From positions 992,001-1,056,000 of the forward strand of contig CAVOVB010000001.1 in assembly GCA_963699755.1 (NCBI GenBank): a DNA stretch of 64,000 bases. The letters are read 5' to 3'. This DNA is from an uncultured delta proteobacterium (GTDB taxonomy: Bacteria; Myxococcota_A; Polyangia; Polyangiales; Houyiibacteriaceae). Within the stretch, counting starts at the first letter, position 1; each line of letters starts with the position of its first letter. The position numbers and the translations under genes are program-made. Shown here one piece after another: positions 11,155 through 44,983 of this stretch. Under the pieces are notes generated by a model, which did no database searches, was not told where the DNA came from, and saw only the letters and a program-made list of their open reading frames with translations.

Positions 11155-11982
11155 TCAACGACCGGCGGCCTTCTTGATCGCCCCGAGGTCCAGGATGGCA
11201 GCTCCTTCGCCGACGATCGTGGGCTGCTTTCCGTCCCACTTTTCGACCGCCCGCAAGTATACGATTTCAGGGCTAATTGTGTTCCGGAGGAGCTCCTGTG
11301 CCTTCGCCTCGGCTTCCGCTTGGGCAAGCATCGCATTCGCCACACCCCGTGCCTTGGCCTCGGCCTGCTCGGCTTCGACCCTGATGCGCGCGAGGTCGTT
11401 CTTCGCAGTGAGAGCGCGCTGCTCGGCCACCTGTTTGGCTTCCACCGCCGCCTGGTACTCCGGCGCGAATTGGAAGTCCGTAATCGACAGCTCGGTCACC
11501 AGGATGTCGCTCTTGGCCAGCGTGACCTTGATGCTGTCACCCAGGGTCGCCTTCACCTCCTGACGCTTGGTGATCAGCTCTTCGGCGGTGTACTGCGCCG
11601 TCGCCTGTTTGAGCGACTCTTGAAGCGCGGGATCGATGATCGTGTTCTCGACGACCAAACGCGTCCCGATGTTGCGAAACACCTCGACCACCTGCGCAGC
11701 GTCGATTCGGTAGTTCAACGCGATCTTGGTCGACACGACCTGAAGGTCTTTGGACGATGCGGTCGCGCTTGCTTCCATCTTGTGCACGCGCGTCGAGATG
11801 TTGATGATCTGCGTCTTGACCGGTGTTCGGAAGTGGATGCCTTCCTGGAGCGCGATATCCTGGATCTCGCCCCATTTGGTCACGACGCCCAGGTTGCCCG
11901 CGTCGACCTGGGTGCAGCCCGACAGCCCAGCAAAAAATAGTCCTACGACGAGGGTTTTGAGCAATTCTGAATCCACTTTCAT
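11155..11982 (-). CDS. SPFH/prohibitin family membrane protein
   Basis: SSKDLQ, AQYTAEELITKR, AVEAKQVAEQ coil, VEKWDG; possible lipobox LSGC. Confidence 0.9.
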   Translation of the reverse strand: MKVDSELLKTLVVGLFFAGLSGCTQVDAGNLGVVTKWGEIQDIALQEGIHFRTPVKTQIINISTRVHKMEASATASSKDLQVVSTKIALNYRIDAAQVVEVFRNIGTRLVVENTIIDPALQESLKQATAQYTAEELITKRQEVKATLGDSIKVTLAKSDILVTELSITDFQFAPEYQAAVEAKQVAEQRALTAKNDLARIRVEAEQAEAKARGVANAMLAQAEAEAKAQELLRNTISPEIVYLRAVEKWDGKQPTIVGEGAAILDLGAIKKAAGR

Positions 11983-12032
11983 ATGCATTTCCACTTCTAT
12001 AGCGCTCCCGAGCCGATTGTCGCCCCGCTTGG

Positions 12033-12686
12033 TCACCAATCCAAGAGCGCAACGAGGATGCCGGTCGCCACGATCAGCGCGCCCGCCATGCTGTCGCCAT
12101 AGTGTTCGATCCACTCGCCTTTGAACAGTCGCGCGCCAGAGTGGGCCAAGGCAACCAAGGCGACCATCGCGCCAACGGTAGCAACCTCATACGCGACGAC
12201 GATCGACGCCGTCTCCACGCTGGACAGCGGAGCCGCCGCAAACAAGATTGGAATCACGGCGACGCAAGGGTCGGCACAGTAGATCAAGAAGAGCGACCAA
12301 GTCGAGGCGCGTGACGCGTCGTGGACGTGGTCGTAGTGATGATGATGGTGACCGTGGAGCCTGTGGGCGAACGCGCCGCGAAGACCCCAGATCGCATAGG
12401 CGACGCCGAAGCCAATCAAGAGCAAACCCGCAACCGATACCATGCGCTCGCCGAACGACTGAAAGAGCTGCGCCCCGAACATCAGCGCGAGCAAGCCCAG
12501 CAGGACGGACACCGTCACGTGACCGAGCCCGCAGATGAAGGCGACCCGGGCTGCCCTTGCTCTGGACCAGTTTCGCGCCCGGGCCACGGCAGCGATCGGA
12601 ACCCAGTGATCGGGGGCCAAAGAGTGCAATGATCCTATGGTGATGGCCCCGGTGGCCAGGGATAGGAAAAGGCTAGTGCTGCTCAT
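12033..12686 (-). CDS. Nickel/cobalt transporter-like membrane protein (NiCoT/UreH-type motif)
   Basis: LHSLAPDHW motif, GLGH, His-rich loop HRLHGHHHHHYDHVH, about 6 TM segments, downstream of hypB. Confidence 0.8.
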   Translation of the reverse strand: MSSTSLFLSLATGAITIGSLHSLAPDHWVPIAAVARARNWSRARAARVAFICGLGHVTVSVLLGLLALMFGAQLFQSFGERMVSVAGLLLIGFGVAYAIWGLRGAFAHRLHGHHHHHYDHVHDASRASTWSLFLIYCADPCVAVIPILFAAAPLSSVETASIVVAYEVATVGAMVALVALAHSGARLFKGEWIEHYGDSMAGALIVATGILVALLDW

Positions 12687-13431
12687 GCTGCGATCCCTGT
12701 GGGTGCCCGTGATGGTGATGGTGATGCGTTTCCGCCGGCCGGGCCAACGCATCTGGACGTCGCTCTTCCAGCCAGTGCAGCCATGTGTCGATTCCCTCAC
12801 CGGTTTTTGCCGAGACCTTGAGCATCTTGGCTCCTGGCATCACGCGGGCGAGCGCGTCTTCGACTGCGTCGACGTCGAAATCCAAATGCGGAATCAAATC
12901 GACTTTGGTGAGCAACACCAGATCCGCTTTTTGAAACATGACGGGATACTTGAGCGGCTTGTCTTCGCCTTCGGTGACCGAGAGTGTCACCACGTTGGCG
13001 GCTTGGCCGAGATCGTAGATCGCGGGGCAAACCAAGTTGCCGACGTTCTCGATGAAAAAGATGTCGCGGTCGCTCGACGGGAAGTGATGCAGTGCGTGGT
13101 GTACCAGCCGCGCATCGAGATGGCAGGCAGACCCCGTAGTGATCGTAGACGAAACGATGCCCGCAGCATTGAGGCGATCGGCGTCTCGCTCGGTTGCTAG
13201 GTCACCGCTAACCGCGCCTAGCTTGAGGCGGCCCGCTGCCGCCTTGGAGGTAGCCTCCAAAACCGCGGTTTTCCCGGCTCCGGGAGAGCCCATCAGATTG
13301 ATCGCCAACACCCCTAAGCCCTCGAAATGATTCCTATTATGGCCCGCCTGAGCGTCGTTGTCGGAGAGGATTCTCTCCTGCACCTCGATCGGTACGATCT
13401 CCGGGTCACCGCATCCGCAGGTTTCACACAT
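12673..13431 (-). CDS. hypB: Hydrogenase nickel incorporation GTPase HypB
   Basis: N-terminal MCETCGC, GSPGAGKT, CHLDA, ENVGNLVCP, EGEDKPLKYP; C-terminal His tract. Confidence 0.96.
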   Translation of the reverse strand: MCETCGCGDPEIVPIEVQERILSDNDAQAGHNRNHFEGLGVLAINLMGSPGAGKTAVLEATSKAAAGRLKLGAVSGDLATERDADRLNAAGIVSSTITTGSACHLDARLVHHALHHFPSSDRDIFFIENVGNLVCPAIYDLGQAANVVTLSVTEGEDKPLKYPVMFQKADLVLLTKVDLIPHLDFDVDAVEDALARVMPGAKMLKVSAKTGEGIDTWLHWLEERRPDALARPAETHHHHHHGHPQGSQHEQH

Positions 13432-13771
13432 CGGGGGCCTCCATTTCAATTCGTTCCAAGATGATCTCGTCGCCCTGAATCATGCGCGCGGGTCGCCCGC
13501 AGTCATCGCAACGCAGGATCGCTCCGCGCGCAACGCTTCGCTCACACGAGGGACAGGCCCAAGCCGCAGCAACCGTATCGATCGCCAGCTCGGCGCCTTC
13601 ACAAATCGTGCGCTCGCGAAAAGTGTCGAACGCGGTCTTCAAGAGGTCGAGCTCGACTCCAGACAGCTCGCCGATCTTCACGTACAATCTGTGAACCCGC
13701 GAACCTCCGTGCAGGGCAGCTTCTTGTTGCACACGGTCGATCAGAGAAGCGATGATGGAGTACTCGTGCAT
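13424..13771 (-). CDS. hypA: Hydrogenase nickel metallochaperone HypA
   Basis: MHE start, GELSGV, CPSC/CDDC zinc site. Confidence 0.96.
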   Translation of the reverse strand: MHEYSIIASLIDRVQQEAALHGGSRVHRLYVKIGELSGVELDLLKTAFDTFRERTICEGAELAIDTVAAAWACPSCERSVARGAILRCDDCGRPARMIQGDEIILERIEMEAPDV

Positions 13772-13774
13772 CTG

Positions 13775-14617
13775 TCAGTCGCTCTCGAACTCCGGTGAGC
13801 GCTTGTCGAAAAAGGCCGCCAGGCCTTCTGCGAAGTTGGGACCGTTGGCGATTCGCGCGAGCTCCGTCAGCTCAGCATCGAGATGAACGTCGAGACGATC
13901 CATGCCCGCCGCTTGATTGAGAAGGCTCTTTGCGACCCCGACCGCGCCGGTGGGCAAATCGGCGAGCTCCCGAGCGATTCGCGTCGCCTCCGCATCGAGC
14001 GAACTAGCCGGAATGACGCGGTTAATTAGACCCCATTCCAGGGCCTCCCGCGCAGTCAGACGCGGGTTGAGGAGCACCAGCTCGAGCGCTTTCCGAAGGC
14101 CGAGCAGGCGGGGAAGGAAGAAGGTCGAGCTTTCCGCACCCGTGAGCCCAGTTTTGAAGTATGCCCACTCGAACCAGGCGCGCTCCGAAGCAACGACGAG
14201 GTCGCAACTCATCGCAATTCCAAACCCCCCTGCTGCGGCTGGCCCGTCGACCACTGCGATGAACGGTTTCGGGGCGCGCCGAATCTCCGAGATGGTGCTA
14301 TGGATGTACTCGAGAATCTGTTTGAAGATTTCCCCATAGCCTGCGTCTGGCGTGCGGGTCTTTGGCTGCAGGTACCCGAGGTCTTCTCGATCGCCGCCGT
14401 CGCGGATGTACTTCAGGTCGGCGCCACTGCAGAACACGCCGCCCTCGCCTCGAATGACCACCGCGCGCACGTCGCGATCGCGCGCGAGCTGCAGACCTGC
14501 TCTTCGGAAGTCCTGAGCGGTCTCGATGTCGAGCGAGTTCAAACGTTCGCGGCGTGCGATGGTCAGGATGCCTACCGCTCCTTCTCGCTCGACTCGGATA
14601 TGTTTCATTTCGCCCAT
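13775..14617 (-). CDS. Enoyl-CoA hydratase/isomerase (crotonase) fold protein, HypX C-terminal-domain-like
   Basis: FCSGADL oxyanion motif, KPFIAVVDGPAAAGG, AYFKTGLTGAE, EGLAAFFDKRSP; 3-nt gaps to hypE and hypA. Confidence 0.88.
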   Translation of the reverse strand: MGEMKHIRVEREGAVGILTIARRERLNSLDIETAQDFRRAGLQLARDRDVRAVVIRGEGGVFCSGADLKYIRDGGDREDLGYLQPKTRTPDAGYGEIFKQILEYIHSTISEIRRAPKPFIAVVDGPAAAGGFGIAMSCDLVVASERAWFEWAYFKTGLTGAESSTFFLPRLLGLRKALELVLLNPRLTAREALEWGLINRVIPASSLDAEATRIARELADLPTGAVGVAKSLLNQAAGMDRLDVHLDAELTELARIANGPNFAEGLAAFFDKRSPEFESD

Positions 14618-14620
14618 CGC

Positions 14621-15658
14621 TCAGCAGATCCTCGGCAGAAGCTCGCCCTCGGCCTCGGCCAGCAAACGGCTTCCGAAGCCGGTGTCGAGAATCACAAATC
14701 CAGGCCGATCGGCCACGCATTCCCCGATAATTGCCGCGTTTCGGCCCAGCGGGTGCGAGCGAAGGGCGTCGAGCACTCCTGCTGCGACCTCGGGCCCTAG
14801 GCCGAAGATCGCCTTGCCTTCGTTCGCCGAGACGAGGGGGTCGATTCCGAGCAGCTCGCCCACAGCGCGAACCTCATCACGGAGCGGCACGGCGGTCTCG
14901 TCGATGATGATTCCGACGCCGCTCTTCTCGGCCATCTCGTGGAGCGCGCTCGAGAGCCCACCGCGCGTGGGATCCTTGAGAGCAACCACGCCCTCCCCGC
15001 CGACCTCGAGGCCTCGGCGAACCAGTGTGTGGATCGGCGCAACGTCGGACTCGAGCGTCGTCTCCAGCGCGAGCTCGTTGCGCGTTGCCATGATGGCCAG
15101 ACCGTGATCACCCATCGTTCCGGTGACCAGAATCTTGTCGCCCGGTCGCAGGCCGCAGTCCGAAACAAGGCGCGAGGTCAGCGCGACGCCGGTCGTGTTG
15201 AGGACCAAGCCGTCGAGCTCCCCGTGACCCATCACCTTCGTGTCGCCGGTGACGATCGTGGTGCCGGCCTCTTCGCAGGTTGCGCGGATCGACGCCCAAA
15301 TTCGGAGCAGATCCTCTTTTGGGAATCCGTCTTCGATAATCGCTGCGCAGGTCAATGCAAGGGGCTCGGTCGCTCCCATCATCGCGAGATCATTGACGGT
15401 TCCAGAGATCGCCAAGCGTCCGATGTCGCCGCCGGGAAACTCGATGGGCTGCACGACGTGCGAGTCGGTGGCGATGACGAGGTACTGATCGCCGATGCGA
15501 ATCGCCGCCCCGTCGTCCATGGCGCCGAGGCCGATGCCGTCTTCGACCTTACCGAGGCCCTTTGCAAAGACCTGCTCGATCAGCGCGCGCATCGCGCCAC
15601 CGCCGCTTCCGTACTTGAGCGTGATCCGTTCGTCGATGAAGCGGGCGTTGCGCGTCAT
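14621..15658 (-). CDS. hypE: Carbamoyl dehydratase HypE
   Basis: TDSHVV..FPGGDIG, GDTKV, DPTRGG, ANEG, C-terminal PRIC. Confidence 0.96.
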   Translation of the reverse strand: MTRNARFIDERITLKYGSGGGAMRALIEQVFAKGLGKVEDGIGLGAMDDGAAIRIGDQYLVIATDSHVVQPIEFPGGDIGRLAISGTVNDLAMMGATEPLALTCAAIIEDGFPKEDLLRIWASIRATCEEAGTTIVTGDTKVMGHGELDGLVLNTTGVALTSRLVSDCGLRPGDKILVTGTMGDHGLAIMATRNELALETTLESDVAPIHTLVRRGLEVGGEGVVALKDPTRGGLSSALHEMAEKSGVGIIIDETAVPLRDEVRAVGELLGIDPLVSANEGKAIFGLGPEVAAGVLDALRSHPLGRNAAIIGECVADRPGFVILDTGFGSRLLAEAEGELLPRIC

Positions 15659-16803
15659 GCAGCGCCTCGCTTGATCGAACGAAGGTCCGGTCGACCGCCG
15701 TACTGATTCCAGATCTTGCAGGTGCCTTCCGCGCTCACCATGCAGGCGCCGACCGGCGTGTCGGGCGTGCATTCCTTCCCGAACAGTGGACAGTCGGATG
15801 GAGATGCGATCCCGGCCATGATGTCACCACACTGGCACTGCTGAACCAGCTTGGGCGGTGCGTAACTCCAGAGCGCCGACGCGTCGACGGTGAAGCGCTT
15901 TCTCGTGTCGTACTTCGCGAACTCATCGCGCAGGCGGAGGTTCCCGTTCGGGACATGGGCGATGCCCCGCCAGCGACCTCCGGTCGCACGGAACACCTGC
16001 CACAAGAGCTTCTGTGCATGGACGTTCCCTTCCCGAGTCACGCAGCGCGGAAATGCGTTTTCCACCCGGGGCTCACCGCTGTTGATGACCTCCATGAGCT
16101 TCACCAGGCCGGCCAAGACATCGAGTGGCTCAAACCCTGCGATCACCACCGGCAGGCCGTGACGCTCCACGAATTTCTCGAAGACGCCCGAGCCGGTGAT
16201 CGTGGCGGCGTGTCCGGCCGCGAGGAAGCCTTCGATTTTCGTCTCCGGCATTTCGGCCACAATCTCCATCACCGGAGGGATGTACTTGTGTGCCGAGAGC
16301 ACGGAGAAGTTGTCGGGCGGATCGTCGACCAAGACCGCTGCCGTTGCAACCGCGGTCGTCTCGAACCCCGAGGCAAAAAAGACGATGTCTTCGTCGAGCT
16401 CACGCGCGAGCTCGACGGCCTGCGTGACGCTGTACACCACGTCCACCTGTGCACCCTCGGCTTTTGCATCCGCGAGCGATTGAGACGTGCCGGGCACCCG
16501 CAGCATGTCACCGTACGACGCGATTCGCACACCCTGCTTTGCGAGCGCGACAGCTTCGTCGACCTCGGGCACGTCCGTCACGCAGACCGGGCATCCAGGT
16601 CCCATGATCACATGCAAATCCGGAGGAAAAGCGGCACGTAGGCCGAATTTCGCGATCGCCTGCTCATGGCTCCCGCAGACGTGCATCACCGACACCGGCG
16701 CATGATCGGCTTCATGCACCAGGCGATCGAGCGCTTCGCGAAGGCCGCGCGCGCGCGCCGGGTCGCGAAACTTGAGCTGGGCCACCTGGTCACTCGGATT
16801 CAT
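15655..16803 (-). CDS. hypD: Hydrogenase maturation scaffold HypD
   Basis: CGSHE, GPGCPVC, GFETT, GFEP, CMVSAEGTC. Confidence 0.97.
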   Translation of the reverse strand: MNPSDQVAQLKFRDPARARGLREALDRLVHEADHAPVSVMHVCGSHEQAIAKFGLRAAFPPDLHVIMGPGCPVCVTDVPEVDEAVALAKQGVRIASYGDMLRVPGTSQSLADAKAEGAQVDVVYSVTQAVELARELDEDIVFFASGFETTAVATAAVLVDDPPDNFSVLSAHKYIPPVMEIVAEMPETKIEGFLAAGHAATITGSGVFEKFVERHGLPVVIAGFEPLDVLAGLVKLMEVINSGEPRVENAFPRCVTREGNVHAQKLLWQVFRATGGRWRGIAHVPNGNLRLRDEFAKYDTRKRFTVDASALWSYAPPKLVQQCQCGDIMAGIASPSDCPLFGKECTPDTPVGACMVSAEGTCKIWNQYGGRPDLRSIKRGAA

Positions 16804-17113
16804 GAGAGCTTCTCTTCGAGCGATCCGTTGCATCGGGCGCGGCGGCGATCTCTCCACGAACATCTGCCGCCATCAAATCCTGCTCGTCGGCCAAGCGCAG
16901 AAGCTCGTCGTACAAGGCCAAGGTCTCGGCTGCCTCCTCCGGTGGAATCCGCCGAATCGCAAAGCCCACGTGATTCAAGATGAAGTCCCCGGGATCCACC
17001 GGCGCATCACAGACCTCCAGGCGCACTTGTTTCCTCACGCCCCAAAAATCGACGGTCGCGATCTGGTTCTCGCGGTCGACTTCGACCACCTTGCCGGGAA
17101 CACCTAAGCACAT
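16790..17113 (-). CDS. hypC: Hydrogenase chaperone HypC
   Basis: MCLGVPG start, HVGFAI. Confidence 0.96.
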   Translation of the reverse strand: MCLGVPGKVVEVDRENQIATVDFWGVRKQVRLEVCDAPVDPGDFILNHVGFAIRRIPPEEAAETLALYDELLRLADEQDLMAADVRGEIAAAPDATDRSKRSSHESE

Positions 17114-17132: not shown

Positions 17133-19409
17133 TCAACCTTTGTCTCCCAGAATGGCGTCCGCGATCAAGGCCTGACCGAGGGCGATTCCGCCGTCGCCCG
17201 GTGGAACTTGGCTGTGCCGTAACACCCTGGTTTTATTGGATATTTTTCTCTCAATTCCGGCGGCCAGCCAGGCGTTTTGGAAAACACCGCCCGTCAACGC
17301 CACGGGTAGCTCCCCCCGTTCTGCCAGAAGCGCCTCCAGCAGCGCAACCGTGACCGCCACGAGCGCGTTGTGAAAGCGCGCCGAAACCTGTCCGGTAGGC
17401 AGTTCGGCCCGCAGATCGTCCACAGCAGCACGCACCGTCGGCCGGAGGTCAACCTCCCAGGGTGCGCGCGCTCGGTCGATCTCGAACGGATATGCGTCCA
17501 CGACCGATTCGTCTGCGACCTGGTCCCACGCGATCGCAACCTGACCTTCGTACGTGGCCCGCGTCCGGCCGAGCGCCAGCGCGCCAAAGCCGTCGAAGTA
17601 ACGTCCGACTCCTCGTGCTTGCGGCGCATTGAGCTCGCGTTCGATCATTTGCTTCACCAAGCGAATCGATTTCGGGTCTACGTCGCCCAAGAGCGCAATC
17701 GAGTCCCTCGATGGCGCGCCGTCGTAAGCGTCGTGCAAGAGCGCGTAGCCGATTCTCCAAACCTCGCGCATTGCAAGATCGCCTCCAGCCAAGCGGAGCG
17801 GCCGAAACGTCGCCAAGCGTTCATATCGACGCGCAGAACAAAGCAAAAACTCCCCGCCCCAGGCCGTTCCATCCTCGCCAAAGCCCGTGCCATCGTAGGC
17901 CACGCCGAGGACGGGCCCCTGCAGGCGATGCTCGGCCATCAGGCTCACGACGTGTGCGTGGTGATGCTGAACGCCGACCAGGGTGACATCATCACGCGCG
18001 TTCGCGTAGCGTGTCGACAAGTACCCCGGGTGCAAATCATGTGCAACGACGTCTGGATGGATCGAGAGGATCGTCTGCATTCGCTCGATCGCTTCTTCGA
18101 AAAAATCAAGCGCAGCGACGGTCTCGAGGTCCCCGATGTGCGGTCCGAAGTACGCGGTGTCGCCCATCGCAATGCAAAACGTGTTCTTCAAGTGCGCACC
18201 GCAGGCGAGGATGGGACGCGCCACCCGACGCGATAAATAGAAGGGCCTTGGAACAAAGCCCCGCGACCGGCGCATGATGGTCGGTGTCCCGCCGATCACT
18301 CGGCCTACCGAGTCGTCGCAGCGCATCGCAATCTTTCGATCGTGGAGCAAGATCGCATCCGCAATCCCTTCGAGACGATGCCGGGCTTCGTCGTTTTCGT
18401 AGCAAATGGGCTCGTCGGACGTGTTGGCCGAGGTCATTACGAGAGGCCGCTTCGCGGCCGCGAGAAGCAGGTGGTGGAGTGGGGTATAGGGTAAGAACAG
18501 CCCAACAAGCGAAGTATCGGGGCTGACCTCGCCGGCTAGACCAGCGCCTGGGCGCCTTCGCAGCAGGACCACCGGCCGCTCCGCCGCCGTGAGAAGCGCC
18601 TCTTCCTGGGCACCGATCTCTGCAAGTGCCTGTGCGGCGGCGAGGCTCCCCACCATGACGGCAAATGGCTTCTCGTCACGATGCTTGCGTTCCCTCAGAC
18701 GACGAACAGCTGCTCCGTTGGTTGCATCACATGCGAGATGAAATCCCCCCAAGCCTTTGACCGCCACCACTCCGCCGCGAGACAAGCGCTCCGCTGCGTC
18801 TGCGAGCGCATCGACCTCGGATGCGGGGTGACCATCGAGTCGATCAAAGCTGAGCGTAGGCCCACATCGTGGACAGGCATTGGGCTGTGCGTGAAAGCGT
18901 CGGTCCTCGGCGTCGTTGTACTCCGCCTGGCACGCCTCGCACATGACGAACCCCGACATCGTCGTTGCTGCGCGATCGTACGGAATGCCCGTGGCAATCG
19001 TGAAGCGAGGCCCGCAGGCCGTGCAGTTCGTAAAGGCATATCCAAATCGACGGTCGTGACGATCCAACACCTCCCTCGTGCAGTCGTCGCAGGTCGCGAG
19101 GTCCGGCGGGATGGACAGGGCCTTCTGACCGTCGGCATCGCTCGATACGATCACGAAGGCATCGAGGCGCTCGTCTGGAATCGTCGTCTCCCGGAGCTCT
19201 ACGATCTCTGCTGCGGCCAAGGTATCTCTTCGTAATTCCTCCATAAATCGGCCCAAAACAGCTTTGCTTGCGAAGGCTTCGATCGTCACGCCCCCGGGGT
19301 CGTTTCGCACTCTTCCGACGACGCCCACGCGACGCGCCAGTCGGTAGACCCAGGGCCGAAAACCAACCCCTTGCACGGTCCCTCGAATCTCGATGCGATG
19401 CCCTGGCAT
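17133..19409 (-). CDS. hypF: Carbamoyltransferase HypF
   Basis: GTVQGVGFRP acylphosphatase domain, two zinc fingers, KGLGGFH, QHHHAH, GDGGIALGQ. Confidence 0.97.
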   Translation of the reverse strand: MPGHRIEIRGTVQGVGFRPWVYRLARRVGVVGRVRNDPGGVTIEAFASKAVLGRFMEELRRDTLAAAEIVELRETTIPDERLDAFVIVSSDADGQKALSIPPDLATCDDCTREVLDRHDRRFGYAFTNCTACGPRFTIATGIPYDRAATTMSGFVMCEACQAEYNDAEDRRFHAQPNACPRCGPTLSFDRLDGHPASEVDALADAAERLSRGGVVAVKGLGGFHLACDATNGAAVRRLRERKHRDEKPFAVMVGSLAAAQALAEIGAQEEALLTAAERPVVLLRRRPGAGLAGEVSPDTSLVGLFLPYTPLHHLLLAAAKRPLVMTSANTSDEPICYENDEARHRLEGIADAILLHDRKIAMRCDDSVGRVIGGTPTIMRRSRGFVPRPFYLSRRVARPILACGAHLKNTFCIAMGDTAYFGPHIGDLETVAALDFFEEAIERMQTILSIHPDVVAHDLHPGYLSTRYANARDDVTLVGVQHHHAHVVSLMAEHRLQGPVLGVAYDGTGFGEDGTAWGGEFLLCSARRYERLATFRPLRLAGGDLAMREVWRIGYALLHDAYDGAPSRDSIALLGDVDPKSIRLVKQMIERELNAPQARGVGRYFDGFGALALGRTRATYEGQVAIAWDQVADESVVDAYPFEIDRARAPWEVDLRPTVRAAVDDLRAELPTGQVSARFHNALVAVTVALLEALLAERGELPVALTGGVFQNAWLAAGIERKISNKTRVLRHSQVPPGDGGIALGQALIADAILGDKG

Positions 19410-19807
19410 TACGGTCCGTCCTCAGCGACGCTGAGAACGTAGGCGATGAGGTCCCACTTCTGTCCATCGCTCAGCGTCGGCCAGGCCGGCATCGAAGTAC
19501 CGCGCTCACCTTCGCTCAAGACCTCAAAGACCGCGATCGCAGTCGTGTTCGATCGCCATTCGCTGCTGCCAAAGTTCACCGGCTTCCCGGACAGCGCGTT
19601 ACTCCGCACGCCGTTTCCGTCCGCCCGATCGCCATGGCAGAGCGCACACTTCTCTCTGAAAAGCGCCTTTCCGCGCGCGCGCGCTTCGTCCGACGAAAGT
19701 TGGGCTACGGGGACCTCGACCTTGTCGTAGTCGACGGCGGACGATCCGGCTTTGCCGCTACACCCCAAGAGTGCGAGCGACATGAGCAGTGCTCCCATGG
19801 CCTTCAT
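19409..19807 (-). CDS. Monoheme c-type cytochrome lipoprotein
   Basis: Lipobox LLGC, CALCH, distal Met in GTSMPAW; start overlaps 3' end of protease gene. Confidence 0.88.
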   Translation of the reverse strand: MKAMGALLMSLALLGCSGKAGSSAVDYDKVEVPVAQLSSDEARARGKALFREKCALCHGDRADGNGVRSNALSGKPVNFGSSEWRSNTTAIAVFEVLSEGERGTSMPAWPTLSDGQKWDLIAYVLSVAEDGP

Positions 19808-20306
19808 CGCGACTCTCCGTAGATCGGACCGGTGGATACCCGAGTGACCTGAGCTCTTCGACCACGCGCTCGACGAGCTCGGGAATGCTTGCCTGGACAG
19901 CGGGCGTTCGTTCGAGCCCGAGCTCGATCGAGTCCGGCACCACGCCCAGAATCAGCACCCTGTCCGGATACCGATCGAGCAGGCTCGCCCCTGCGAGGAG
20001 GTCCGCGACCCCAATTTGATGCGGCGAAAGGCGCTCGTAGACCGCCGGAGCCACCTCTTCGCCTTCGATCCGAACCTGCGTTCCGGGCGGCCCGTCGGCC
20101 GCGATCGCATCGACCAGGATCACCTGATCGGCGCTATCGACCAGCGGCAAGAGCGAGAGACCGAGCGTGCCGCCGTCCACGACCATGACGCCCTCGGGAA
20201 ACTCATACTCGCGAATGAGCTTGTGGATCGCGGCAATCCCCGCTCCGTCGTCTGTGCAGACGACATTGCCGAGCCCCAGGATGAGGACCGGCGTGCGGTT
20301 AGTCAT
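19758..20306 (-). CDS. hyaD: Hydrogenase maturation endopeptidase (HyaD/HybD family)
   Basis: LGLGNVVCTDDGAG, DGGT, VDA, SPHQIG. Confidence 0.92.
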   Translation of the reverse strand: MTNRTPVLILGLGNVVCTDDGAGIAAIHKLIREYEFPEGVMVVDGGTLGLSLLPLVDSADQVILVDAIAADGPPGTQVRIEGEEVAPAVYERLSPHQIGVADLLAGASLLDRYPDRVLILGVVPDSIELGLERTPAVQASIPELVERVVEELRSLGYPPVRSTESRDEGHGSTAHVARTLGV

Positions 20307-21039
20307 CCCGGTTGCGCCAGCTCTTGGGGAGGAACTTGTAGCCGCTGAACAAAGAGTCGATGAGGCCCATCCCTTCGACGCGAGATACGAGCATCGCACT
20401 CCAGATATGGTGCGCCACGAAGCCGAGGAGGAACCACATCGCGATGTGGTGAATCCAACGTGCGGTCTGCGCGCCGCCCAAGATCGGAAGCAGGAACCCC
20501 CAGAACTCCATGTAACCGGTCGCGCTCACCGAATAAAGAGCGAGCCCCGTGAGGATCAGCGTGATGTAGATCGCGAACACGAGCAGGTACGTCATGCCCG
20601 CCAATGGGTTGTGACCGACGTTGAGCGGTGGCTCTTTGCTGACGAAGGAGTAGAACTTCAGCATCCTGAAGACATCCCCACGGCGCCGCTTGCCCACGGG
20701 CACGAATTGATGCCAGCGCGCGTAGTACGAACCCACGAACATCCAGGCGATGCGCGACGCGACCGCAAGCGCAAAGACGATGGCCGTGTAGAAGTGGACG
20801 ACCTTCACCGTTGCCATCACGAAGTGTTCGCTTCCTGGTTGCGCTGGGATCAGATACGGATTGCCGATGTAGATCCCGGTGATCGCCAGGATGAACACAG
20901 AGACCATGATGAGCCAGTGGGTCGTTCGGACCAAAAGGTCCCAGACGTAGACTCGCTCGATGCCGTGTACGTCGTGCCGACGGGGGCTCACCTGGGGACG
21001 AGCCCCTCCCTTTACCGCGGCCGTCGTCGGGGGAGTCAT
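20299..21039 (-). CDS. hyaC: [NiFe]-hydrogenase b-type cytochrome subunit
   Basis: YVWD..VRTTHW, VHF, GHNPLA, IHH, HIW heme ligands; four TM helices; FSGYK. Confidence 0.93.
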   Translation of the reverse strand: MTPPTTAAVKGGARPQVSPRRHDVHGIERVYVWDLLVRTTHWLIMVSVFILAITGIYIGNPYLIPAQPGSEHFVMATVKVVHFYTAIVFALAVASRIAWMFVGSYYARWHQFVPVGKRRRGDVFRMLKFYSFVSKEPPLNVGHNPLAGMTYLLVFAIYITLILTGLALYSVSATGYMEFWGFLLPILGGAQTARWIHHIAMWFLLGFVAHHIWSAMLVSRVEGMGLIDSLFSGYKFLPKSWRNRDD

Positions 21040-22742
21040 CGCACCTTCACGCGAGTGATCTCGCGCCCTCCAGGTTCGACGACGTGCACACCGCAGGCCA
21101 TGCACGGGTCGAAGGAATGGACCGTCCTCAGGATTTCAATTGGCTGCTCCGGATCGGCGACCGGGGTCCCGACCAAGGCTGCCTCGTAGGGCCCCGGCGC
21201 ATCGCCGGAATCCCGTGGGCCGGCGTTCCAGGTGCTCGGAACCACGCATTGATACCGCTCGATCTTCCCATCTTTTACGTGGACCCAGTGCCCAAGCGAG
21301 CCGCGGGGGGCTTCGTGGAAGCCGGCTCCCATCGAATCGGCGGGCCAGGTCTCCGGCTCCCACTTGCTGTTGTCGTGGATGCGAAGCTCGCCGTTTCCCA
21401 TGTTGGTGGCAAGCTCGTCGACCCAGTCGCCGATCTTGTCGACCAGGATCTGCGTCTCGATGCCACGTGCCGCGACCCGGCCGAGCGTCGAGAACAAGGC
21501 CGCGGGTCCGACATCGAGCGTCTTTAGGACGTGGTTGACTAGGCCTTGGACCTGCTCGTGACCCTGAACGTAGTTGACCAGCATGCGCGACAAGGGACCG
21601 ACTTCCATCGGCACTCCGTCGTAGCGGGGCGACTTGAGCCAGGAGTACTTCTTCGACGTGTCGAGGCGTTCGAAGGGCGGCTTCGGGCCCGTGTAGTTCG
21701 GCTTGGTTTCGCCCGCCGACGGGTGCAGCGCTTGGTCCTCGCCGCCCGCGTAGTCGTACCAGGAGTGCGTGATCTGCTCGGTGATCTTCGAAGGGTCGAA
21801 CTCTTCGACCTTCGAGAGGTCGCGACCCCTGATGATGCCAGACTTGATGAAGTGTTCCGGTTTCGCTTCGTCGTCGAGCGGGTACTCGCCGTACACCATG
21901 TAGTTGCCGACGCCCGCGCCGTAGCCGGCCCAGTCTTTGTAGAACGAGGCGACCGCGAGAAGGTCCGGGATGTAGACCTTGCTCACGAACTCCTGCGCGC
22001 CGGCGATCAGCTTCTTGAACTCCGCGATGGTGTGGATGTTGAGCGAAGCCTGCTTGTCCGGGTCGACCGGAGTGGCCATCCCGCCGACGAGGAAGCTCTG
22101 CAGATGGGGGTTCTTGCCGCCCAAGATGGCGTGCATCTTGATGAACTCACGCTGCCAATCGAGCGCTTCGAGATAGTGGGCGACCGCCATCAGGTTCGCG
22201 GCTGGTGGTAGCTTGTAGGCCGGGTGGCCCCAGTACGCGTTGGCAAACGGCCCGAGCTGGCCTCGCTCGACCAGCCCTTTGACACGGTCTTGAATGACCT
22301 TGAAGTACGTGGCGCTCGACTTCCCCCAGTCCGAGATCGACTGGGCAAGCGCCGCGGTTTCCTTCGGGTCGGCCTCGAGCGCCGACACGATGTCGACCCA
22401 GTCGAGCGCGTGCAGGTGATAGAAGTGGATCACGTGGTCTTGGATGCACTGGGACGCGATGATCAGGTTTCGGAGGATCCGTGCATTGGGTGGCGGCTTC
22501 GCGCCGATCGCGTCCTCGACGGCGCGAATCGAAGCGATGGCGTGCACCGTCGTGCAGACGCCGCAGATGCGCTGGGTAAAGGCCCACGCATCACGCGGAT
22601 CGCGGCCTTGCAAAATGATCTCGATACCTCGGAACATGGTCGAAGAAGACCATGCATCGGAGACCTGACCTCCCTCGATTTCCGCCTCGATGCGCAAGTG
22701 GCCTTCGATGCGGGTGACCGGGTCGACAACGATATGAGTCAT
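21036..22742 (-). CDS. hyaB: Group 1 [NiFe]-hydrogenase large subunit
   Basis: DPVTRIEGH, L1 QRICGVC, APRG, L2 FDPCMACGVH plus 15-aa cleavable C-terminal extension. Confidence 0.97.
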   Translation of the reverse strand: MTHIVVDPVTRIEGHLRIEAEIEGGQVSDAWSSSTMFRGIEIILQGRDPRDAWAFTQRICGVCTTVHAIASIRAVEDAIGAKPPPNARILRNLIIASQCIQDHVIHFYHLHALDWVDIVSALEADPKETAALAQSISDWGKSSATYFKVIQDRVKGLVERGQLGPFANAYWGHPAYKLPPAANLMAVAHYLEALDWQREFIKMHAILGGKNPHLQSFLVGGMATPVDPDKQASLNIHTIAEFKKLIAGAQEFVSKVYIPDLLAVASFYKDWAGYGAGVGNYMVYGEYPLDDEAKPEHFIKSGIIRGRDLSKVEEFDPSKITEQITHSWYDYAGGEDQALHPSAGETKPNYTGPKPPFERLDTSKKYSWLKSPRYDGVPMEVGPLSRMLVNYVQGHEQVQGLVNHVLKTLDVGPAALFSTLGRVAARGIETQILVDKIGDWVDELATNMGNGELRIHDNSKWEPETWPADSMGAGFHEAPRGSLGHWVHVKDGKIERYQCVVPSTWNAGPRDSGDAPGPYEAALVGTPVADPEQPIEILRTVHSFDPCMACGVHVVEPGGREITRVKVR

Positions 22743-23869
22743 TCTGCGCCTCCTTCATCGGTCCGCGCGGGCGGGCCTTCGGGTGGGTGATCCGCGCCCG
22801 TTCCAACGAGCTTCTTTCCGAGGTGGACCAAGGTGTGCCCCGCAAACGCGGTGGTGACACCAATGGTCGCCCAGAAGCCGATCTTGTCGATGTTCGAGCC
22901 TTTGCCGAAGCCGGGGAAGCCTGGCAGGTGCGCGTAGAACGGCGTCATCTTGTCCCAGAAGTCCGGTTCGGCGCAGCCGATGCAGCCGTGGCCGCATGCG
23001 ATCGGCCAGCTCGTGTTGTCGTTCCAACCGACGTTCGGACAGTTCTGGAACGAAACAGGGCCCTTGCAGCCCATCTTGTAGAGGCAGTGGCCGTCGCGGT
23101 GGGCCTCGTCGCCCCATTGCTCGACGTACTGCCCGGTGTCGTAATGCGCGCGCCGCTCGCAGTTGTCGTGAATCGACTTACCGTAGGCAAAAAGCGGGCG
23201 ATTCAGCTTGTCGAGGGCTGGGAACCGACCGTAGGTCAGGAAGTAGACCAGCGTCGCGGTGAGATTCTGGGCGTTCACCGGACAGGCGGACAGATTGATG
23301 AGATTCTTCACGCCGGGCACGGCGTCAGACACACCGAGCGCGCCGGTCGGATTCGGCGACGCAGCGGGAATGCCGCCAAACGATGCGCAGGTTCCGACTG
23401 CAATCGTCGCCAGCGCGCCGCCGCACACCTCCTTGGCAATGTCGATCGCCGCCTTCCCGCCGACGGTGCAATACGCGCCGTTCGCGCCGGTTGGGATCGA
23501 GCCCTCGACGACCGCGAGGTATGCGCCCTTCTGATTCGCGACGACGTTGTGAAGGTTCTCCTCGGCCTGGTGACCGGCCGCCGCCATGATCACCTCGTGG
23601 TAATCGATCGAGATCAGATCGAGGATTACCTCGGCAGCGGTCGGCTTGCTCGCGCGGAGAAAGGATTCGGTGTTGCCTGCACAGTCCTGGAAGTTGAGCC
23701 AGACCAGGGTTGGCTTCGGCTTGTTCTCGATCGCGTCGGCGATCATCGCCGTCGCCCCTTTCGGCAAACCAAACATCACCGCCATCGCAGAGCAGAAGCC
23801 CATGAACTCGCGACGTGAAACGCCGCGTGCCTCTAACTCCCGCCGGAAGTCATTTCCCGGTTCATTCAT
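22739..23869 (-). CDS. hyaA: Group 1 [NiFe]-hydrogenase small subunit (Tat substrate, C-terminal membrane anchor)
   Basis: RBS GAGGAGG; SRREFM Tat motif; DCAGN, GTCA, ACP; HDNC..CLYKMGCKGP..NC..GHGCIGC; C-terminal TM. Confidence 0.96.
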   Translation of the reverse strand: MNEPGNDFRRELEARGVSRREFMGFCSAMAVMFGLPKGATAMIADAIENKPKPTLVWLNFQDCAGNTESFLRASKPTAAEVILDLISIDYHEVIMAAAGHQAEENLHNVVANQKGAYLAVVEGSIPTGANGAYCTVGGKAAIDIAKEVCGGALATIAVGTCASFGGIPAASPNPTGALGVSDAVPGVKNLINLSACPVNAQNLTATLVYFLTYGRFPALDKLNRPLFAYGKSIHDNCERRAHYDTGQYVEQWGDEAHRDGHCLYKMGCKGPVSFQNCPNVGWNDNTSWPIACGHGCIGCAEPDFWDKMTPFYAHLPGFPGFGKGSNIDKIGFWATIGVTTAFAGHTLVHLGKKLVGTGADHPPEGPPARTDEGGAE

Positions 23870-24088
23870 CGGATCCTCCTCGCAGTTGCAGAGCAAAGGA
23901 CGCGGCACTAGTGCTATCGGCCGCCTGTGAGAGGACTCTACCTCCGCAAAGACGCGAAAAACAAGGTTCTCGTTGCAGTTGAGAGACGTTTTCGACGCGT
24001 CGCGCGCATCTTTCGTTTCGAGCCGATCAGGCGCAATATTTGCACCGATATTTTCCGGGCGAGTCGCGCACGCGGTAGCATGCCTCCA

Positions 24089-33964: not shown

Positions 33965-34966
33965 CTACCACGCGAACACGCGGGCCTCACCGAACCGCGC
34001 GACCATGGCGTTGACGTGCTCGAGGACCGCACGACGCCGCTCTGCGAGTCCCTCGAGTTGCTTCTCGTTGAGCACTGGAGCAAGCGGATCTCCACGCAAA
34101 CGGGCAGAAAACGCCGCAATATCGAGCTTTCGCACCGCTTCGATCGTCGAGCGACGAAAGCGCTGAAGGGCCCTCAAGCGAGCCTCCATCAGGCCCAGGC
34201 GCTGCTCTCCGGGCCAGAAGCCGGCACCGTTGTCCAAGTAGATCAGCGGGCCGCCCTCTCCCCGCGATCGAAGGTTGGTGAAGTCGCCCCCCCAGCGGTC
34301 GACGTTTTGGGTGAGATAATCGAATACGATCAGGTCGGAGAGCTCCGCGGGCCGCTGCGCAATATCAGGGGTCTTTGCGATCGGTCGACTCGGATCGGTC
34401 GCTTCGCGAATTCCCGAGCGCCTGTTCAGATCGGCGCGATAATCTACAGGTCGTTGGTAGGGAGTGATCGGAAGCGAGCTCTGAACCCGTAGCCAGCGCT
34501 CCCAGTTGCGACCCACGCGAATGCGTTTGAGTGGCTCCGGGATCCACCAGATGAACGCGCCCTTTAGCGTGCCATCCGGCGCAATGCCGAGCTCGCTCAC
34601 CCGCGGATCACTTCCGGCGGCAGCTCGCAGCTCGCTCCACCGAAATCTGCGACCGCTTGTCGGAGGTACCCGGCCCAGCCCGAGCTCGCGATCGAGATAG
34701 TACGCGGCGACCTCTGAGTACCAGTGGGCCGCGGAGAAGGTCTGCTTGGGCTTGAAATAGCCCCGAGTCCCGTCCGCGAGCCTGATCTCGAAGGCCAGGC
34801 TGCGGCCCCCTTTGCCCTTGTTTACCCCCGCGATCTCCTCTGTCCTCAGCGCTGCAATTCGCTCGCTATCCGCCTCTCCGAGAAAGGCGTCTGCGCTGCT
34901 CTGCGCGGCGACCGTCCAGGGCATGAGGAGCGCCATCAGCAGGGCGATCGAGGCGACTCGCAGCAC
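33965..34966 (-). CDS. Exported atypical kinase, Fam20/Four-jointed-like
   Basis: Signal peptide; GKGGRS loop, YFKP, SEVAAYYLDRELGLGRVPP, FDYLTQNVDR, LIYLDNGAGF. Confidence 0.75.
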   Translation of the reverse strand: MLRVASIALLMALLMPWTVAAQSSADAFLGEADSERIAALRTEEIAGVNKGKGGRSLAFEIRLADGTRGYFKPKQTFSAAHWYSEVAAYYLDRELGLGRVPPTSGRRFRWSELRAAAGSDPRVSELGIAPDGTLKGAFIWWIPEPLKRIRVGRNWERWLRVQSSLPITPYQRPVDYRADLNRRSGIREATDPSRPIAKTPDIAQRPAELSDLIVFDYLTQNVDRWGGDFTNLRSRGEGGPLIYLDNGAGFWPGEQRLGLMEARLRALQRFRRSTIEAVRKLDIAAFSARLRGDPLAPVLNEKQLEGLAERRRAVLEHVNAMVARFGEARVFAW

Positions 34967-39741: not shown

Positions 39742-42700
39742 TCAGTGAAAGTCGCGGGATTGGTGTGTGTGCTCGGCGAGTGAAACGTCTGGGGCCCATA
39801 GCGACTTTGCGATCAGGTGAATGACGCCATCGGCTTTTTGAATTTCTCCCGTCACGCCGAGTAGGGATGCGGTTTTGGCAAGCACGGCATGGCGGTCGAA
39901 GACCTGCTTCCAAACGACGACGTTGACGAAGCCGGTTTCGTCTTCGAGGGTGAAGAAAGTAACGCCAGACGCCGTGCCCGGACGCTGGCGGCAGATCACC
40001 ATGCCGACGTACTCGAGCTCGTCCCCGTGTCCGCAGCCATGGATTCGGCTTGCTTCGGGTATGCCTCGTGAACGAAGTGCGCCGCGAAGCCCTCGCATGG
40101 GATGGCCGCGTGTGCTGTGATGACTCGAGCGGTAATCCCAGATCACCTCGTCCTCACTTGCCAACGATGCGAATGAGATCTGACTCGGTCCAGGTTCGAG
40201 CGGTAAGGAATCCTGCACAAAGCGTGACAAGCTCCGTACCTGCCAAATCGCGTCGCGCCGGTTGAGACCGAAACACTCGAAGGCGCCCGCTTCAGCCAGC
40301 GCATGCAGGGCCTTCTTGTTGAGCCCGGTCCGTCGAACGAAGGTCGCTAGATTTGGCAGCGGCAGCTCCGTAGCTTCGATGCGCTCTCGCTCGAGGACTC
40401 CGAGCCCCTTCACATAGCGAAGTCCCATCCGCACCCCGTAAAGACGACGCTTTGCGTCGTTCAGGGGGCTTTGCCCCGTCTTGCTGTCTATCGGGAACAG
40501 GGTGCAATCCCATTGGCTTTTGTTGATGTCGATGGGGTGCACCTCGACGCCGTGGCGCTTCGCGTCTTCAACCAGTGTGGCCGGGCTGTAGAAGCCCATC
40601 GGCTGGGCGTTCAAGATCGCACAGGTGAACACCTCGTGGTGATGACGCCGGAGCCAAGCGGTGACGTAGGCCAGCAAGGCAAACGACGCGGCATGGCTCT
40701 CTGGAAAGCCGTACTCACCAAAGCCACGAATCTGCGAAAACACACGCTCCGCAAACTCCTCGGGGATGCCTTCTTCGAGCATACGCGGGACCATGCGCGC
40801 CCGGTGTTTCTCGATACGGCCGGACTTCCGCCATGCGGCCATGTCACGGCGCAACTGATCGGCTTCGCCTGCTGTGTAGCCGGCGGCTTCGACGGCTAGC
40901 TTCATGACTTGCTCTTGGAAAATCGGGATGCCGAGAGTCTTCTTCAAGATGCGCTCCAACTTCGGGTGTGGATAGACGACTTCTTCTTCGCCCTTACGCC
41001 GACGCAGGTACGGATGTACCATGTCACCTTGGATCGGACCGGGACGCACGAGCGCAACTTCGATCACCAAGTCATAGAAGGTCCGTGGCTTAAGCCGTGG
41101 CAGCATCGCCATCTGTGCACGGCTTTCGATTTGAAAGACCCCGACTGTATCGCCTTTCGACACCATCTCGTACGTGGCCTCATCTTCGGCAGGGACTGTC
41201 GCGATCTCGAGGTCCTGCCCTTTGTGCTCGCGCAGTAGATCAAACGCGCGGTGAATGCAGCTGAGCACTCCGAGGCCCAAGAGATCGACCTTGAACAGGG
41301 CCAAATTGTCGACGTCGTACTTGTCCCACTGGATGACGGTGCGGGCCCCCATGCTTGCCGGCTCGATTGGAACGATCTCGTCGACGGGACGATGACCTAG
41401 AAGGAACCCGCCCGGGTGAATCGATAAATGCCTTGGAAAATCGAGCACTTGAGTCGCTAGAGACCAGAGCAGCTGAGTAGCCGGAGCGTCCTTGTCGAGG
41501 CCGGCTTCTCGAAGGAGCTCGGGGTTGAAGCTGTCGTCGCGATGCCTCAGTAGTCGTGTCGCGGTCTCCAGATCCGTTCGGGCCAGGCCGAGCACTTTGC
41601 CGACATCACGGACCGCAGAACGAATACGATAGCGAATGATGTTTGCGACCATCGCGGCATGGCGGCGCCCGTATTTTTCGTAGACGTGTTGAATGACTTC
41701 TTCGCGACGCTCGTGCTCGATGTCGAGGTCGATATCTGGTGGCTCGGCACGTTCGACGCTCAAGAAACGTTCGAACAACAAGTCCATGCGCACGGGATCG
41801 ATTGCGGTTATTCCTAGACAAAAACAGACTGCGCTGTTGGCGGCACTGCCGCGCCCTTGACAGAGGATGTTTTTCTGACGGCAGTATTGAACGATTTCGT
41901 ACATCGTGAGGAAGTAGCCGCCATAGTCCAGCTTGCGAATGATCTGAAGCTCGCGTTCGATCTGAGCGCAAACGTCATCGGGCACTTTGCCCCGGTAGCG
42001 CGTCCGCGCACCGCGAAACGTGAGCTCGCGCAACCAGCCTTGCTCGTTGTGGCCGGAAGGAAGACGCTCTTCTGGATATCGATAACGAAGGTCATCGAGG
42101 CTGAACGTGCACTGTTCAGCGATCTCGATCGTGCGACGAAGGCAGGCAGGGTCGTCCGAAAAGAGACGTTCGAGCTCCTCGGCAGGTTTGAGGTCGTGCT
42201 CCGCGTTTGCGCAGATCGTACGGCCGGCTTCCGAAAGCACTTTCCCCTCGCGAATGCAGGTCAAAACGTCCTGAAGTGGGCGCCGGATCTTGTCGTGATA
42301 GAGGACTTCGTTGACACCGACCGTCTGAACTTCGAGCTCTCTTGCGACAGAGCGCAAGGTTTTTTCTTTTGGCTTTTCGTGATCGCTCAGATGACGAGCG
42401 CAAAGGGCGAACACCGAGGAAGGTCCATGGCTCGCGTGCAGGGCGCGCAAGGCTTCAGGCCTTGTGGAGAGAAAGAACAAGTCGTGCAACGGATCCAGCT
42501 CTTTGCTGTGAATGAGAGAAACTCCCTTCTCGCAGCGGGCATGACCGATTGACAAGATTCTGCAGAGATCAGCATAGCCGCGTCGCGTCTTGGCGAGAGC
42601 AACGACATGCTCTGCATGCCCTTCGATCTCGACCATGAGCTGAGCCCCGATCACAATTCGGATCCCGAGCTCTTTGGCTCTCATATGTGCGCGTACGAGG

Positions 42701-44322: not shown

Positions 44323-44951
44323 GAGCTGCCTCGCAAACCGGATGGAGCGATTGGGATGATCGACGAAAGCTCGGTGGCAATGCCGACTTTGTCTTTGAGA
44401 ACATGCGTGTGAACTTCGAAGTGATCGGCTCGAAGAGAACCGCGTTGCGGCTCAACGCGCAAACCAACCAAAGGGCCGGATGAGGGTTCCTCTCGAGCAT
44501 TCGAAGTGAGTAAGAGAATACGTCCGTCATGCTTGCGCAAGAGACCTTGAAGACGGCCTTGCCAGTTGACCGAAGAACCGGGCGGGAGCGCATCGCTGAG
44601 GTCGATGACCGTCAAGCCGAAGGCACCAGAACGCGCAAGCCACTCGGCAACGCGAACCAACGCGAACGGACCTACATGACGCGGCACGTGAATTGCGATG
44701 AACGAATCGAGGTTCACTCCCGCCGCATCGAGGTCGGGAGGAAACAAGGCGCCGTCTTTGGGCTGTACCCAGGCGACCAGCTCGGCGCGCGCCTGCGCCT
44801 GGATCACACAGGACACCGCCGTGGTCGTCCGCGCACAGGCATGCCTGCCAGAAACCTCGACCAAGCGCCCCCGAGGCAGGAGCTCCGAGAGCGGTAAAGC
44901 TTTCGCTCTAACCCGCCGAGCCTCAAAATCGATGACAGTCCCAAAAGCCAT
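44319..44951 (-). CDS. imuA: RecA-like ImuA
   Basis: LPRGRLVEVSG, degenerate Walker A ACARTT, AWV..LFPPDL, RSGAFGLTVID; ATGA overlap with imuB. Confidence 0.82.
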   Translation of the reverse strand: MAFGTVIDFEARRVRAKALPLSELLPRGRLVEVSGRHACARTTTAVSCVIQAQARAELVAWVQPKDGALFPPDLDAAGVNLDSFIAIHVPRHVGPFALVRVAEWLARSGAFGLTVIDLSDALPPGSSVNWQGRLQGLLRKHDGRILLLTSNAREEPSSGPLVGLRVEPQRGSLRADHFEVHTHVLKDKVGIATELSSIIPIAPSGLRGSS

Positions 44952-44967
44952 GGGACCACCCAATATA

Positions 44968-44983
44968 CTGAACAAAATAACAG
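44968..44983 (-). promoter_or_regulatory. LexA (SOS) box upstream of imuA
   Basis: CTG-N10-CAG; coding strand CTGTTATTTTGTTCAG ends in GTTCAG as in the Myxococcus LexA operator; 16 nt upstream of the imuA ATG. Confidence 0.75.

Follow-up and report, generated by a model that had tools for sequence, protein, structure and literature searches.

The closest described system is HypX, also called HoxX, the N10-formyl-tetrahydrofolate (formyl-THF) decarbonylase of Cupriavidus necator (pHG1, WP_011153943) and Aquifex aeolicus (PDB 6J0P). HypX is a fused protein of about 560-600 residues, in which an N-terminal formyltransferase domain (His74/Asp80/Asp109) precedes a crotonase-like C-terminal domain, and like the gene described here it is encoded directly after hypE. 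The available text of PMC6802093 names Tyr416 and Glu426 as candidate bases of A. aeolicus HypX and Ala392 and Ile419 as a neck at the cysteamine. It also reports a HypC/HypD/HypX complex shown by SEC and, citing Burstel 2016, a HypX-minus phenotype for C. necator Tyr439 and Glu449 mutants. Our search of the literature, mostly that outside subscription journals, found no description of a stand-alone or two-gene counterpart of HypX. Only fused HypX is named in the available part of PMC12134894, and the terms 'hypX', 'enoyl' and 'formyltransferase' do not occur in the available main text of PMC5900883. By pairwise score, the nearest described relatives of the protein studied here are PaaG (1,2-epoxyphenylacetyl-CoA isomerase; 4FZW, 6SL9) and the oxepin-CoA hydrolase-like crotonases of model NF046063.

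The crotonase gene and its operon

The gene lies in a stretch of 64,000 nucleotides from an uncultured member of the Houyiibacteriaceae, which is referred to as the window. Its hyp and hydrogenase genes are the following.

13775..14617, minus strand: crotonase-fold gene (P0001, 280 aa) of a hyp-linked family, proposed formyl-CoA decarbonylase
14621..15658, minus strand: hypE; its probable start codon and the hypD stop codon share ATGA; ends 3 nt before the crotonase gene
15655..16803, minus strand: hypD; its product belongs to a separate clade found together with the crotonase and is the predicted binding partner
16790..17113, minus strand: hypC
17133..19409, minus strand: hypF
13424..13771, minus strand: hypA; begins 3 nt after the crotonase gene
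12673..13449, minus strand: hypB (longest ORF; true start probably slightly downstream)
12033..12800, minus strand: His-rich membrane protein, probable nickel transporter (weak NicO/DsbD_2 matches)
19409..23908, minus strand: group 1 uptake [NiFe]-hydrogenase genes, encoding small (DCAGN motif) and large subunits, cytochrome b, maturation protease and a small cytochrome c

Read along the minus strand, the hydrogenase part runs from small subunit through large subunit, cytochrome b and protease to cytochrome c, and is followed by hypF, hypC, hypD, hypE, the crotonase gene, hypA, hypB and the Ni-transporter-like gene. By tblastn, this operon is the only hydrogenase and hyp set of the genome. From its L1 and L2 motifs, the hydrogenase may belong to group 1f. 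The proximal cluster motif of the small subunit (22739-23908) reads FQDCAGN, with Asn where Cys is usual and without an additional Cys as in O2-tolerant 4Fe-3S clusters; the Asn also occurs in five related loci, and locus L041 has Cys. The small monohaem cytochrome c gene (19409-19807), between protease and hypF, is kept in most related loci that reach this far. In most loci of the same genus the probable nickel transporter gene is followed by one for an SPFH/Band 7 protein (11155-12114 in the window), and in two close relatives (L032 and L023) the operon has no hypF between cytochrome c and hypC. Elsewhere the window holds a DnaE2-ImuB-ImuA-like SOS mutagenesis cassette (39742-44975) and a mevalonate pathway region (57283-62233) with two GHMP kinases, diphosphomevalonate decarboxylase, polyprenyl synthase and an FMN-dependent enzyme. 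A gene with a Fam20C-like kinase C-terminal match (33965-34966, E 2e-9) adjoins agmatine deiminase and carbon-nitrogen hydrolase genes. The genome has five COX1-family genes, so the organism can probably respire oxygen.

The crotonase ORF starts with ATG, and its junctions read TGA-GCG-ATG from hypE and TGA-CAG-ATG into hypA. The initial annotation, which had described a 280-residue crotonase with 3-nt gaps to hypE and hypA, is borne out in this, the strand being minus; the motifs it quoted (GPAAAGGFGIA and WAYFKTGLTGAESSTFFLPRLLG) are present and its numbering of Tyr153 and Glu162 is right. An ECH domain is the sole domain of the 280 residues (Pfam ECH_1, 157 bits). The protein belongs to the crotonase superfamily by its fold and two oxyanion-hole loops, in which SGADL and GxAAAGG are invariant across the family. 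The best NCBIfam models are oxepin-CoA hydrolase-like, with 181 bits against a cut-off of 300, and PaaG, with 153 against 345; all other models likewise stay below their cut-offs. Several JGI names read PaaG. The AlphaFold2 model has a pLDDT of 89.6. The genome contains 17 other crotonase matches, all at most 38% identical to P0001. A scan for promoters and terminators gave matches at chance level only.

Linkage to hyp genes and a formyltransferase partner

A scan of species genomes yielded at least 304 confirmed relatives among at least 599 pattern matches, of which the best 80 (65-93% identical) were kept. These loci, the best 80 of at least 304, come from Myxococcota, Acidobacteriota, Rokubacteria/Methylomirabilota and Binatota, and in all 80 the gene is preceded by hypE, in the same orientation and no more than 2 kb away. 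The rest of the hyp cluster is rearranged in several of them, and the order of hypE and crotonase is constant. In an even draw of 201 genomes of the phylum, 59 have HypD and 17 the crotonase, always about 1.1 kb from hypD, which is the length of one hypE; the 142 genomes without HypD all lack it. The consistent hyp linkage of orthologs, by which the initial annotation had proposed to judge its reading, is thus seen in 80 of 80 loci and 17 of 17 carriers from the phylum draw. Neither crotonase nor HypX was found in 42 of the 59 HypD-bearing genomes, so the gene is not universal.

Among 81 genomes of the window's family, 41 carry the crotonase, 41 a HypD at least 76% identical to that of the window, and 40 both. 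One of the two exceptions, G051, is an assembly of 520 contigs; the other, G072, was set aside as a case of this HypD type without crotonase because its hypE breaks at an assembly gap. Nine family genomes have only a distant HypD (41-44%), and all nine are without crotonase. We give these co-occurrences as counts rather than tests because related genomes are not independent. Fused HypX was not found in the 81 family genomes, which gave three partial N-terminal matches only, nor in the window's genome or the 201 phylum genomes (a search run without a positive control). As far as these 81 and 201 genomes were searched, full HypX is absent where the crotonase is present, a point that the initial annotation had proposed to check.

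In 26 of the best 80 of at least 304 loci, all Acidobacteriota, a formyltransferase gene of 180-290 codons stands between hypE and the crotonase gene, often with stop and start codons that overlap. The N-x-H and Asp of folate-dependent formyltransferases are invariant in this partner. Its best model is that of PurN (TIGR00639), but at 59-85 bits it stays under the cut-off of 150, and it differs from PurN in its coupling to hypE and crotonase and in an extended C-terminus that bears a conserved W-M motif. By hhalign, the partner matches the PurN of the window's genome at 98.7% and HypX at 23%. The 'split HypX' of the initial annotation is therefore too literal, because the partner found in relatives is PurN-type and unlike the HypX N-terminal domain. 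Where the two genes adjoin, these 26 loci would hold the same pair of functions as fused HypX. The single candidate partner-crotonase fusion, P0294, the only one of the 150 best representatives (described below) with both parts, reads as frameshifted sequence and was rejected.

No formyltransferase is encoded among the 48 ORFs scanned in the window, as had been noted, and the whole genome holds none of the partner type: the partner profile scores 264-389 bits on partners and at most 72 bits in this genome (PurN and PurU, each over its own cut-off, and a weak third match). The partner type is likewise absent from all 81 family genomes (nothing above 82 bits) and from five further Myxococcota carriers (nothing above 70 bits). 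When 18 genomes with partner-less loci were searched throughout, 17 gave no partner (best 92 bits; two positive controls scored 380 and 248). The exception, L114 (G089:C450), has a partner-type formyltransferase directly after hypC, away from the crotonase locus, and represents another arrangement of the formyltransferase-crotonase pair. In a crotonase tree of 49 family rows and one outgroup row, the partner state changes eight times, with at least five changes forced by strong branches. Repeated loss is the simplest reading, although the tree is unrooted for direction. At L049:6208-7479, the space between hypE and crotonase is taken by an IS481-type transposase gene; in the sister locus L052 the formyltransferase gene stands at this place. 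No common replacement gene recurs across lineages near the partner-less loci.

The crotonase without partner is as conserved as HypE and shows no decay. Across 24 partner-less loci, mean identity to the window's proteins is 88.5% for the crotonase, 88.0% for HypE, 90.4% for HypD and 73.5% for HypF. Glu162, Gly160 and Ala129 are kept in all 54 partner-less loci and Tyr153 in 53, the remaining locus (L035) having Phe in its place.

Pocket residues and possible kinship with HypX

The residues at issue in the predicted acyl-CoA pocket are the following.

14231..14233, minus strand: Ala129, aligned with A. aeolicus HypX Ala392 and C. necator Ala415, the 'neck' beside the CoA cysteamine
14159..14161, minus strand: Tyr153, aligned with HypX Tyr416/Tyr439
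14132..14140, minus strand: Gly160-Ala161-Glu162, in place of the Pro-Asp-Gly of PaaG-like neighbours; Glu162 aligned with HypX Glu426/Glu449

BLASTP and hhalign place Tyr153 on C. necator Tyr439 and Glu162 on Glu449, with numbering tied to 6J0P. The HypX Tyr-Glu register proposed initially is right as to the residues that align and wrong as to their spacing, which is 10 rather than 9 in C. necator and A. aeolicus; the exact spacing of 9 seen in the window's protein occurs in 5 of 19 HypX sequences. All 19 sampled HypX proteins have the Ala, the Tyr and Gly-Ser-Glu. Among the best 80 of at least 304 family loci, Ala129, Gly160 and Glu162 are each found in 80 and Tyr153 in 79.

As a control, a profile of 47 family rows was run against 50%-identity representatives, and the 150 best proteins were taken. 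Removal of 36 family members or fragments (including P0341) left the 114 nearest outside crotonases. In these, Tyr153 occurs 86 times, Gly160 six times, Ala129 twice and Glu162 never, and none has the triple of Ala129, Gly160 and Glu162. Of the Tyr/Glu pair put forward initially, Glu162 thus sets the family and HypX apart from these outsiders, but Tyr153 does not and was rejected as a marker. Judged from these alignments, the signal is carried by Glu162, Gly160 and Ala129, and the sharing of these three pocket residues by the crotonase family and HypX only points to HypX's reaction.

As stated initially, the protein is also without the two catalytic Glu residues of enoyl-CoA hydratases (Glu144 and Glu164 of the rat enzyme). 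These columns hold Gly133 and Tyr153, and several paralogs in the genome have Glu there. The Pro-Asp of PaaG, which contains its catalytic Asp, is absent, as had also been claimed: in the alignment to 4FZW, Gly160-Ala161 takes its place, in 80 of the best 80 of at least 304 loci, whereas Asp stands in the 161 column of 106 of the 114 nearest outsiders. Beyond the pocket the likeness to HypX is modest. At 45 family-specific positions, HypX proteins share 5-10 residues with the family, against an outgroup mean of 4.7 (range 0-10, leaving aside one family fragment).

In a structure search of the crotonase model against 48,161 chains, HypX 6J0P ranks sixth (Z 29.6, rmsd 2.5, 254 aligned, 19% identity), and PaaG 6SL9 has Z 27.1 with 216 aligned. 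HypX is tied with ranks 2-8 and lies below an ordinary crotonase (Z 32.4), five ordinary crotonases scoring equal or higher. The gap in Z between HypX and PaaG is weak evidence because it stems partly from the placement of the C-terminal helices in the monomer model. Foldseek against the PDB had no HypX among 34 rows listed of at least 500 matches, a list that is uninformative on HypX because ordinary crotonases fill it. HypX is also outside the best 60 of 205 PDB sequence matches and the 150 best representatives.

In a quick tree of 66 rows, which came with a long-branch warning, the family fell within the PaaG-like proteins and HypX branched elsewhere. It was set aside because its search had missed a better tree: a constrained search holding family and HypX together came out 34 log units better. 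The careful tree has 38 rows (9 family, 7 HypX, 16 outsiders and 6 paralogs) and leaves out 28 of the 66, among them the longest branches. It joins the family with HypX-C at support 99/97, and with 12 motif residues dropped the two are still joined at 91/92, a grouping that an interim quick tree had left open. The HypX stem is very long in these trees, and the alternative in which the family groups with PaaG-like proteins to the exclusion of HypX is not rejected (p-AU 0.377). The tree comparison proposed initially thus favours HypX-C in the best trees; by pairwise similarity the nearest relatives are PaaG-like. Kinship of the family with the HypX C-terminal domain is favoured by the trees, and convergence is possible. 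P0252, a divergent family member (40% identity) with a Y..S-A-E motif and low-GC style sequence, branches next to HypX in both careful trees.

Predicted docking on HypD and proposed role

We modelled a complex from the window's HypD (residues 28-392), HypC and the crotonase, each with its own alignment. The score is 0.73 (0.72, 0.77 and 0.73), and the best of three controls is 0.00. Of 157 solved complexes, 116 come up to this mark, as do 2 of 215 mismatched pairs; these figures are rough here, given the separate alignments and three chains. At least 69% of contacts recur between runs, the partner has a pLDDT of 90 or more, and all confident contacts of the crotonase are with HypD. Two segments are central to the predicted interface.

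14285..14323, minus strand: helix 99-111 (KQILEYIHSTISE), at the heart of the crotonase surface predicted to bind HypD
15946..15981, minus strand: HypD loop GGRWRGIAHVPN, centre of the predicted interface; canonical form xxxWRG[LIV]Gx[LIV]Px

The predicted crotonase face also takes in residues 38-48, 82-91 and 243-251, and HypX lacks the predicted docking residues. The HypD loop differs from that of 33 HypD proteins of genomes without the crotonase. On the HypD side, the predicted face takes in residues 70 and 72, which come right after the GPGCPVC motif; according to the available text of PMC12134894, the cysteines of this motif are close to the Fe site. The crotonase-linked HypD clade has 75 clade-specific conserved positions; at otherwise fixed sites it has CGSHEQA, GIAHVPNG and AAGHAATI (vs the usual PGHVS-type).

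Residues kept by at least 90% of the linked clade and by less than 25% of outsiders were called lineage-specific; the outsider set for the crotonase includes one family fragment. Such residues are enriched at the predicted interface, both in HypD (16 of 34 versus 59 of 331 elsewhere, p 2e-4) and in the crotonase (15 of 31 versus 46 of 249, p 7e-4), and plain conservation is not (p 0.10 and 0.70). This enrichment is support rather than proof, since the model was given those alignments and surface exposure is uncontrolled. The PDB sequence matches include HypX alone (7 entries) and HypD, HypCD or HypCDE entries of one sequence, with no HypD-HypX or HypD-crotonase structure, so the model is unlikely to be recalling a like complex. 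Together, the predicted complex supports binding of the crotonase to the window's HypD.

The gene is a real feature, and its function is most likely like that of the HypX C-terminal domain. In the reading that we consider fairly probable, it encodes a putative formyl-CoA decarbonylase that docks on HypD and releases CO in an alternative CO-ligand route of [NiFe]-hydrogenase maturation. Going by the HypX alignment, formyl-CoA would bind in a crotonase pocket narrowed by Ala129. Glu162, aided by Tyr153, would then take the formyl proton directly or via water, and CO and CoA would be released, as proposed for the HypX C-terminal domain. In the modelled complex, docking on the co-evolved HypD would pass CO to the Fe of the HypC-HypD scaffold. 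In many Acidobacteriota the adjoining PurN-type formyltransferase, a pairing seen directly in the loci, would supply formyl-CoA from N10-formyl-THF. As far as searched, this partner is absent from the window's genome and other Myxococcota, so that here formyl-CoA would have to come from general metabolism.

Of the sources suggested initially, oxalyl-CoA decarboxylase and formyl-CoA transferase (Frc) fare poorly in the window's genome: it has seven TPP-family matches and four CoA transferases of family III, none of which reaches the cut-off for either enzyme, and both candidates were rejected because the best scores lie far below. Fhs was not found in this genome either. 2-Hydroxyacyl-CoA lyases release formyl-CoA, and an unlinked lyase-like enzyme, also among the suggestions, is present, though under cut-off: for the TPP enzyme at G000:C3:586421-588289 (minus strand), both the best PDB match (E 3.5e-69) and the second NCBIfam match (313 of 600 bits) are to 2-hydroxyacyl-CoA lyase. 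Its gene occurs in 47 of 48 genus genomes (including the window's), with or without the crotonase, and in 5 of 15 other partner-less genomes versus 1 of 25 with partner, too few for a general substitute for the partner. This enzyme, a family III CoA transferase or a side activity of PurN or PurU may perhaps provide formyl-CoA. According to the available text of PMC12134894, CO at about 10 nM is enough in C. necator to outcompete the endogenous precursor, and trace formyl-CoA could thus suffice with the enzyme sitting on HypD.

The protein may alternatively be a true Hyp factor that binds HypD and carries out other chemistry, as a formyl-CoA hydrolase or formyl carrier feeding HypD, or on another small acyl-CoA in partner-less lineages; formate or formyl would be delivered and HypD itself would make CO. 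Linkage and predicted docking fit this equally well, and the eight changes of formyltransferase state with no shared replacement gene speak for it, as does the review PMC12134894, which in its available part leaves open that HypCD converts a bound precursor itself. We nevertheless think it rather unlikely, since the pocket has in common with HypX alone three residues that point to HypX's reaction and, by the same text, free formate and formyl groups abound even with no dedicated enzyme. That the protein is catalytically idle in partner-less lineages, a structural subunit stabilizing or shielding HypD, seems improbable. The strong predicted HypD interface, the genome's want of a partner gene or clear formyl-CoA source and the Phe of partner-less L035 would suit such a subunit, but the pocket residues are kept (54 of 54; Tyr153 in 53 of 54) along with the CoA and oxyanion loops, all of which a mere scaffold would be expected to lose. 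It is very improbable that the gene is a passenger of the hyp operon and encodes an ordinary isomerase or thioester hydrolase of the PaaG-like kind, a reading suggested by its best NCBIfam and PDB sequence matches and JGI names but already largely refuted by hyp linkage across phyla and rearrangements, with no NCBIfam cut-off reached, the Pro-Asp of the neighbours absent and no aromatic-degradation genes recurring near the loci.

The initial reading of a CO-ligand synthase is thus partly supported by hyp linkage, residue alignment, absence of fused HypX, trees and the HypD model, and corrected in its 'split HypX' and its reliance on Tyr153. Tentatively, we propose a third CO-ligand route, in which a one-domain formyl-CoA decarbonylase would bind a co-evolved HypD directly and, in Myxococcota and several other lineages, would use formyl-CoA of general metabolism without a folate-dependent partner. 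This enzyme may be near the ancestor of HypX-C. HypX and the PurN-type pair would then be two independent later couplings to formyl-THF. The family would separate decarbonylation from formyl transfer in a 280-residue protein, so that this step could be assayed alone with free formyl-CoA. The predicted HypD complex offers a concrete model of CO hand-over of which we found no such structure in the PDB. In many genomes from soil and sediment, a gene that currently goes by PaaG or enoyl-CoA hydratase would receive a new annotation, and the crotonase could serve as a compact component when hydrogenases are produced heterologously under aerobic conditions.

Among known systems, PaaG and the NF046063 crotonases have the same length as the window's protein and share its A-[YF] in place of the hydratase Pro-Glu, and in the careful trees the family nests among them together with HypX-C. 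The crotonase differs from them in Gly-Ala-Glu for Pro-Asp-Gly, in Gly to Ala at position 129 and in a family-specific insert at 75-91; it scores 152.7 bits on the PaaG model TIGR02280 against a cut-off of 345, and its context is hyp, not paa. With HypX it shares the crotonase domain (29% identity over 204 columns), the Tyr/Glu pair, Gly-x-Glu and the neck Ala. It is not a member of HypX, since the fused formyltransferase is absent from this free-standing protein, and in the genomes searched its lineages do not overlap with those of HypX. Contact with HypCD has been shown by SEC for HypX and is predicted by the model for the crotonase.
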